A stretch of DNA of 38,371 nt from a virus (IMGVR_UViG_2563366865_000004:1-38371), one strand, 5' to 3'. Counted from the first letter of the stretch, positions 4,277-4,527 are shown. Numbers and translations are program-made. Notes: generated from the letters alone by a model not told the origin.

Positions 4277-4423
4277 TCATTCTGGACAAACAATTCCATC
4301 CTTAGCTACTGACTCCTTTAGTCTCCTCAATACCTCATTACTGAACGACCGATCATCCTTTTTCGCGGACTGCTCCAAAGCCTTTTCTAGCCATTCTGGC
4401 ATCCTTAATGTCTTAACTTTCAT
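4277..4423 (-). CDS. arc: Arc-like ribbon-helix-helix repressor, 48 aa (not in supplied ORF track, below size cutoff)
   Basis: Minus-strand ORF MKVKTLRMPEWLEKALEQSAKKDDRSFSNEVLRRLKESVAKDGIVCPE, AAGGAG RBS, sits upstream of ant and divergent from mnt as in P22 immI. Confidence 0.7.
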   Translation of the reverse strand: MKVKTLRMPEWLEKALEQSAKKDDRSFSNEVLRRLKESVAKDGIVCPE

Positions 4424-4527
4424 TTTTGCTCCTTTGTATGTGGTACGCATACATAGTATTTAGGTACGCATTGATAGTCAATAGATACCTACATATCCTG
4501 TGGTAAATAATTATTCAGGATGCGCCG
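4424..4527. promoter_or_regulatory. Divergent Pant / Pmnt promoter-operator region of immI
   Basis: Intergenic region between divergently oriented arc and mnt; by analogy with P22 immI. Confidence 0.5.

Follow-up and report, generated by a model that had tools for sequence, protein, structure and literature searches.

Which elements keep the antirepressor in check in a P22-like phage whose ORF track lists the antirepressor gene ant and the divergent repressor gene mnt, with no arc gene between them? In phage P22, the immunity I (immI) region comprises mnt, arc, sar, and ant (Sauer et al. 1983, Susskind 1980, as cited in PMC2629481). The roles of these elements are summarized in PMC2629481 and PMC8022706, and the site between gene 16 and the tailspike gene has been referred to as the 'ant moron' (PMC2629481). 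Here, we address this question for a viral stretch of 38,371 nucleotides (IMGVR_UViG_2563366865_000004; hereafter 'the window') that derives from an E. coli phage or prophage of the P22-like (Lederbergvirus-type) kind and is closest, among phage records, to CUS-3, HK620, Sf6, and several recent podophages of E. coli. An earlier reading of this DNA, made without database searches (the sequence-only reading), had marked positions 4277-4527, which exactly comprise a small ORF plus the spacer up to mnt, and claimed that this ORF encodes a 48-aa Arc-like repressor that is missing from the ORF track and completes an immI module of the P22 layout.

Results

Gene order around the small ORF

The small ORF is indeed flanked by an antirepressor and a repressor gene. 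The intact ant gene (3287..4210, minus strand, 307 aa) was identified by the Pfam domains P22_AR_N (E 6e-46) and P22_AR_C (E 6e-28) as well as by a match to PHROG 245 ('anti-repressor Ant'), and its product is 56% identical to P22 Ant over the full length. On the opposite strand, the mnt-like repressor gene (4528..4779, plus strand, 83 aa) was recognized by the Pfam Arc family. The arc homologue itself (4277..4423, minus strand, stop codon included; 48 aa), a predicted ribbon-helix-helix protein of the Pfam Arc family, is separated from ant by 66 bp and from mnt by 104 bp, the corresponding spacers of P22 being 68 and 90 bp long. Between ant and the tailspike gene (241-3186, minus strand; P22-type/endosialidase), a terminator scan returned an intrinsic terminator-like hairpin (3250..3269, minus strand; 8 pairs followed by TTTTTTT), at a place equivalent to that of the annotated ant terminator of P22, and on the other side of the module lies a gene 16 homologue (5604-7721; PHROG 770, DNA transfer protein). 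Gene order, strands, and the location between gene 16 and the tailspike gene are the same as in P22, where gene 16, the prophage-side genes, and mnt occupy one strand, and arc, ant, and the tailspike gene the other. The order matches that of the annotated P22 immI, which bears out the claim that arc-ant is arranged divergently from mnt.

In the tailspike, a head-binding N-terminus of the P22 type is joined to an endosialidase body resembling that of CUS-3 siaK1, a domain combination that points to a K1-capsule-specific phage. Besides, two genes follow mnt on its strand. The first (4776-5090, plus strand) overlaps the mnt stop codon and encodes a protein of 104 aa whose N-terminus resembles a signal peptide (PHROG 19844), and the second (5116-5601, plus strand) encodes one of 161 aa with an LLAGC motif like that of lipoproteins (PHROG 6067). 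Both sit where P22 has orf59a/sieA and hence may be prophage-expressed exclusion or conversion genes.

The small gene encodes an Arc homologue

Translated from the ATG at 4423, the arc product reads MKVKTLRMPEWLEKALEQSAKKDDRSFSNEVLRRLKESVAKDGIVCPE. It matched the Pfam Arc family (PF03869) with 25.1 bits (cut-off 20.4; positions 9-48 of the 50-position profile) and PHROG 228 ('Arc-like repressor') with an E-value of 6e-7. In a BLASTP comparison with the Arc protein of the annotated P22 record, the check that the earlier reading had called for, residues 5-43 aligned with Arc residues 11-49 at a pairwise E-value of 6e-6, with 12/39 positions identical (31%) and 24/39 similar (62%); similarity to an Arc-family ribbon-helix-helix protein was thus found. 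When the family profile was compared with P22 Arc by hhalign, the same columns were recovered with an E-value of 1e-4, at a probability of only 56%. A phmmer search of the PDB returned the designed single-chain Arc dimer 1u9p (E 0.003), with AmrZ (3qoq) as the second-best match (E 0.011), and reached Arc entries only at E 0.4-0.5. The strand-helix-turn-helix signature of the product is common to AmrZ, TraY (whose Pfam match to the 48-aa product stayed below threshold), and CopG/FitA-type antitoxins. Unlike in those systems, however, no toxin or transfer gene adjoins the window ORF, and its context is that of antirepressor control in a phage late region. Among the NCBIfam models, none was specific to the window proteins Arc, Mnt, or Ant. 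In a prophage that is 99.7% identical over the 320-bp query, the RefSeq/PGAP name at this position is 'Arc family DNA-binding protein', and homologue clusters at 98-100% protein identity carry the same name.

The alignment with P22 Arc spans the strand, helix A, the RS-x-x-x-E turn, and helix B, and the L-R-x-P at the end of the strand is kept. The window protein is five residues shorter than P22 Arc and lacks the N-terminal arm, and its residues V3, T5, and R7 align with Q9, N11, and R13 of P22 Arc. In P22 Arc, this triad makes the base contacts to the arc operator. No sequence resembling the P22 arc or mnt operators was found in the window spacer. Together, the V/T/R triad and the lack of a P22 arc operator sequence point to a different DNA specificity and do not speak against family membership. 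A monomer model computed with AlphaFold2 from a 19-sequence alignment showed an extended stretch (residues 1-9) followed by two helices (10-21 and 25-42), at low confidence (mean pLDDT 63, pTM 0.30), and a Foldseek search of the PDB with this low-confidence monomer gave no match; the ribbon-helix-helix fold is an obligate dimer. The assignment to Arc therefore relies on sequence profiles.

Start codon and coding capacity of arc

The ORF finder does list an ORF here, but with a different start: it runs from 4277 to 4450 (minus strand) and comprises 57 aa from the first ATG, so that the start of the 48-aa form is internal. Might the product then be the 57-aa form, with a nine-residue N-terminal arm like that of P22 Arc? 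The upstream ATG is the one that an ORF finder meets first, and P22 Arc itself possesses a seven-residue arm before the strand. Yet an AAGGAG ribosome site lies five bases upstream of the ATG at 4423, and no comparable site was detected ahead of the ATG at 4450. Besides, the latter codon falls inside the conserved promoter/operator core, between the predicted -10 element and the transcription start. The distance from the -35 element to the arc ATG amounts to 57-64 nt among the relatives; as it varies by one to several bases, the upstream ATG comes to lie out of frame, and the upstream extension is out of frame or different (e.g. in locus L005), with the residues upstream of the CUS-3 arc being unrelated. 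The homologues in the homologue clusters are all 47-48 aa long and begin with MKVK or MSKVK, and in near-identical prophages the gene that PGAP calls at this position measures 147 nt. The ribosome site, the homologue starts, the position and frame of the ATG at 4450 in relatives, and the PGAP call lead us to prefer the 48-aa start and make the longer form highly improbable.

Starting from the ATG at 4423, the gene bears the marks of a translated sequence. Across 35 distinct nucleotide versions, 45/48 third codon positions are variable, as opposed to 20/48 second positions, and mean pN (0.158) and mean pS (0.803) yield a pN/pS of 0.20, which indicates that arc is under purifying selection. Its length is kept in all but one of 62 related loci, that is, the IMG/VR contigs that were fetched with the Arc alignment; the exception is L055 (2501-2563), where arc is cut to 20 codons. 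In each of these loci (62/62), the arc match occurs together with a divergent mnt-like match and the conserved spacer. Given the Pfam score, the BLASTP E-value, the pN/pS, and this recurrence, the ORF cannot be put down to chance, and the claim that an unlisted Arc-like gene lies between ant and mnt is upheld. At the sequence level, the 48-codon gene is thus confirmed as a real and conserved, if divergent, relative of the P22 Arc repressor.

Distribution and cargo of the cassette

An Ant-like match, to either the window or the P22 protein, adjoins arc or follows a few hundred bases downstream in 47 of the 62 loci. Among the distinct products that were printed, the Arc strand KVKTLRMP and the Mnt strand PQVNLRLP are kept nearly throughout, with a few single conservative substitutions. 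DNA of the region is present in 145 of 5,426 complete E. coli genomes (in 35 of them at full length), and homologues were found in Salmonella, Citrobacter, Yersinia, and Symbiopectobacterium; in all five hosts, the family resides in phages or prophages.

In a series of loci (L030, L034-L039, L041, L045-L049, L052, L056-L059, and L062), the genes that follow the cassette of mnt, control core, and arc are of very different kinds. Their products measure 185-310 aa (L058 ends before any downstream ORF), and similarity to Ant is either absent, as in L038, L041, L045, L046, and L059, or confined to about 70-150 internal residues. It would seem that the regulatory cassette travels as one piece and is put to use with various cargo genes. 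Separately, in an E. coli prophage with an identical arc (L001, 1571-2500), ant has come apart into a pseudogene for the N-terminus and an ORF of its own for the C-terminus.

A sar-like antisense RNA in the arc-ant spacer

The sequence-only reading regarded the module as complete with arc, ant, and mnt. These three genes are present, but a putative fourth part, a sar-like antisense RNA, had been missed, and its presence is supported by several lines of evidence. The full Rfam model RF00262 (positions 1-68) matches the plus strand at 4211-4277 with 29.3 bits (E 0.004). The gathering score of this model is 43, and a scan of the window at the Rfam gathering threshold accordingly found no sar; in other words, a standard scan misses it. 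At the same position and strand, the relatives score 30-64 bits, and six of them, with 45-64 bits, pass the threshold, the sar RNAs of P22 and CUS-3 scoring 98 and 85 bits, respectively. The predicted RNA of ~67 nt folds into two hairpins with a minimum free energy of -25.9 kcal/mol (z = -5.5). Its second stem, the terminator hairpin, shows double compensatory changes in 8/13 pairs across 30 sequences. The first stem was examined by folding the sequences one at a time; each of the 28 relatives folded forms it, and at least seven different stem sequences are involved.

The position of the candidate RNA is likewise that of P22 sar, which also consists of two hairpins and has its promoter inside ant. 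The sar-like RNA starts inside ant, extends as far as the stop codon of arc, and shows complementarity both to the ribosome site of ant and to the spacer between the two genes. The region's best promoter-like site (4176..4204, plus strand; TTGATA, 17 nt, TATACT, with a TG before the -10 element; 10/12 matches) lies inside the first ant codons, and its -10 element ends 7 nt before the sar match. Psar of P22 is annotated at the equivalent place.

An Mnt-like repressor with an Arc-like head

The divergent gene had been named mnt, a label that fits its N-terminal domain but not the remainder of the protein. As in P22, both the Arc and the Mnt protein belong to the Arc family of ribbon-helix-helix proteins: the mnt-like product matched Pfam Arc with 40.2 bits, its best PDB match is 1mnt (E 3e-5), and residues 8-43 are 42% identical to P22 Mnt residues 5-40. 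The BLASTP alignment ends at residue 43, so the similarity to P22 Mnt is restricted to about the first 40 residues. P22 Mnt hits both PF03869 and PF11423 (Repressor_Mnt, the Mnt tetramerization domain; 72.9 bits), whereas no PF11423 match was obtained for the mnt-like product, whose C-terminal third, a helical-looking tail, differs from that of P22 Mnt. Its strand, PQVNLRLP, is nearer to that of P22 Arc (PQFNLRWP) than to that of P22 Mnt (PHFNFRMP), and every printed mnt product of the relatives carries this strand, with LRMP at the end in two of them. The mnt-like protein (4528-4779, plus strand) therefore looks like a hybrid of an Arc-like head (Q-x-N-x-R) and a new tail. We also considered that the Arc and Mnt proteins of the window might be recent duplicates of one another; a BLASTP comparison between the two found nothing.

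A conserved control core unrelated in sequence to that of P22

The spacer between arc and mnt contains a core of ~60 bp, conserved at 80-100% among 38 distinct versions, which reads, in arc orientation, ..TA..GTA.GTA.CTATTGACTATCAATGCGTACCTAAATACTATGTATGCGTACC..ATACA. This near-invariant stretch borders on arc, where synonymous sites approach saturation (pS 0.80). A promoter scan placed a Pant-like promoter, directed towards arc-ant, at 4453..4481 (minus strand; TTGACT, 17 nt, TACTAT) and a Pmnt-like promoter, directed towards mnt, at 4471..4499 (plus strand; TTGATA, 17 nt, TATCCT). The scan as such returned 5 promoter-like sites in the region as compared with 5.1 in shuffled sequences, so that the case for the two promoters rests on conservation and position. 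The hexamers and the spacer of the Pant-like promoter are 80-100% conserved among the 38 distinct relatives; for the Pmnt-like promoter, the -10 sequence varies, while the T, the A, and the final T of TAnnnT are conserved at 94-99%. The two -35 hexamers stand back to back and overlap in the palindrome ATTGAnnnTCAAT, and the predicted transcription starts are ~60 bp apart. The P22 promoters, in contrast, overlap fully, and their starts are separated by ~37 bp according to the annotation.

Candidate operator DNA extends over 4436..4493 and contains repeated boxes, a near-palindrome, and an inverted repeat. Exact GGTACGCAT boxes occur at 4442-4450 and 4463-4471, 21 bp apart, and these are the only two exact copies in the 38-kb window; the further GGTACGCAT sites considered had one mismatch each and occurred at the rate expected by chance. 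The box at 4463-4471 is situated within the Pant spacer, and that at 4442-4450 belongs to a near-palindrome of 17 bp (4436-4452) that covers the predicted start of Pant. In the window, a third box at about 4484-4492 is degenerate; distant relatives carry a full copy there, 21 bp further upstream. An 18-nt inverted repeat (4457-4474/4478-4495) is centered on the shared -35 element. The shared operator region that the sequence-only reading had placed between the divergent genes is probably represented by the conserved core with promoter-like sites in both directions, but its sequence is unrelated to that of the P22 operators and its arrangement, with back-to-back promoters, a palindromic -35 element, and direct-repeat boxes in a 21-bp phase, seems to be a different one.

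A second inverted repeat, ATCCTG-N15-CAGGAT (4495-4521), overlaps the predicted Pmnt -10 element (TATCCT) and the mnt ribosome site, and recurs once more in the window, at 34576. We considered several roles for it. Since it covers the predicted Pmnt -10 element, its 5' arm would not be transcribed, which argues against a hairpin in the mnt leader; it lacks the T-run of a terminator; and it is unlike the operator-like repeats near the repressor gene and is not an immC-type operator. At the equivalent position, some relatives have inverted repeats of other sequence, and significant hairpins relative to shuffled sequences were obtained in only 9/37 relatives. Control of ant by LexA was likewise rejected, as the sole CTG...CAG pair in the spacer, inspected by eye, is separated by 15 bp and not by 10.

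Discussion

Taken together, the region very probably comprises all parts of a P22-type immunity I module, carried by a P22-like phage of E. coli that has CUS-3 and HK620 among its relatives. What the window exposes is a gap in the ORF track and not a new system, with RefSeq already naming the gene. The sequences define an uncharacterized subfamily, far from P22 Arc.

The relationship to CUS-3 (CP000711), a phage of E. coli K1, deserves comment. Villafane et al. (2008) noted that ant regions of the CUS-3 and HS-1 type apparently lack arc and that ant must hence be controlled differently (PMC2629481). CUS-3 and the window are nearly identical in the tailspike, ant, the mnt gene of the window type, and the spacer between mnt and arc, and the control core is essentially the same. 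We found that CUS-3 in fact contains an arc homologue that had not been annotated, which corrects the 2008 statement for this phage. It is a 46-aa ORF (CP000711 6759-6899, minus strand, corresponding to 2875-3015 of locus L002) that is hidden inside a feature called 'bsq2 boundary sequence'; its product is 58% identical to the window Arc and matches Pfam Arc with 33.8 bits, and the same control core precedes it. CUS-3 differs from the window in an extra ORF between arc and ant (L002 2675-2878, minus strand; unannotated), encoding 67 aa with two CxxC pairs and giving no Pfam match, in the P22-like sar scored above, and in having a P22-type mnt gene in addition to that of the window type.

How might the module operate? 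The genes with their families, order, and conservation, the promoter-like sites, the repeated boxes, and the RNA structure were described above; which protein would bind where and the sign of each regulatory effect, including repression of the ant promoter by Arc and Mnt, we infer from P22 by homology and layout. In the lysogen, the Mnt-like repressor would be made from a weak rightward promoter and, by occupying the conserved operator core, would keep the strong leftward promoter off, so that no antirepressor is produced. Once this promoter is free, for example upon infection or loss of Mnt, arc and then ant would be transcribed. The 48-aa Arc homologue, presumably a ribbon-helix-helix dimer, would build up and repress its own promoter, thereby keeping the burst of Ant short, and the ~67-nt sar-like RNA, arising from the first ant codons, would pair with the ant ribosome site and thus add a layer of translational repression. 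Ant, in turn, would inactivate a CI/C2-type repressor, a plausible target being the 216-aa protein encoded at 29039-29689, which possesses HTH and S24 peptidase domains.

Two other views of the locus need to be weighed against this scheme. On the one hand, the module might be a decaying, non-functional remnant, as has been proposed for some P22-like ant regions. The region is known to be very fluid in P22-like phages, degraded arc and ant genes have been described (PMC2629481), and the truncated arc of L055 and the E. coli prophage with the split ant are in keeping with such decay. In the window, however, none of the three genes is damaged, the promoter core does not deviate from the consensus of the family, and purifying selection acts on arc, all of which makes decay a scarcely credible account.

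On the other hand, the same genes might be wired differently. Considering the V/T/R strand and the missing arm of the Arc homologue as well as the Q-x-N-x-R strand and the missing C-terminal domain of the Mnt homologue, the division of labor between the two repressors could differ from that in P22. The phased ATGCGTACC boxes might, for instance, be bound cooperatively by a single protein, or the roles of the two repressors might be exchanged or re-partitioned, e.g. with the Mnt homologue reading Arc-like sites via its Q-N-R residues, which would lead to an immI-like outcome through another operator logic. Direct-repeat boxes 21 bp apart, positioned over the spacers of both promoters and over the Pant start, would suit such a wiring, as would promoters that are predicted to lie back to back and not to overlap fully, a Mnt homologue with PQVNLRLP (as compared with PQFNLRWP of P22 Arc) next to an Arc homologue with KVKTLRMP, and the lack of PF11423. 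However, the layout, the gene sizes, and sar are all P22-like, and the two boxes within the Pant spacer and over the Pant start occupy positions that correspond to those of the arc and mnt operators of P22; besides, with reading strands and DNA core both near invariant, comparison cannot assign sites to proteins. Overall, we consider such a rewiring unlikely and favor the P22-type circuit outlined above.

No new kind of mechanism is revealed by these findings. For annotation, they illustrate that genes of fewer than 50 codons are lost to size cut-offs and small RNAs to gathering thresholds. Without arc and sar, the antirepressor of the window looks unregulated, which is the conclusion that had been drawn in 2008 for CUS-3. 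The textbook circuit of Arc, Mnt, and sar is extended here to a second sequence family. With its other reading heads and operators and its nearly invariant 60-bp control core, this subfamily offers a comparison system for the specificity of ribbon-helix-helix proteins. As a tentative and admittedly speculative proposal, the subfamily might run its antirepressor switch by an operator design unlike that of P22, with a shared palindromic -35 element, three ATGCGTACC boxes spaced two helical turns apart, an Arc-type Q-N-R strand on an Mnt-like protein with a new C-terminal domain, and a new V/T/R strand on an armless Arc. If this were true, the recognition heads would have been re-partitioned between the two repressors, and the subfamily would be nature's own parallel to the classic experiments in which the specificities of Arc and Mnt were swapped.
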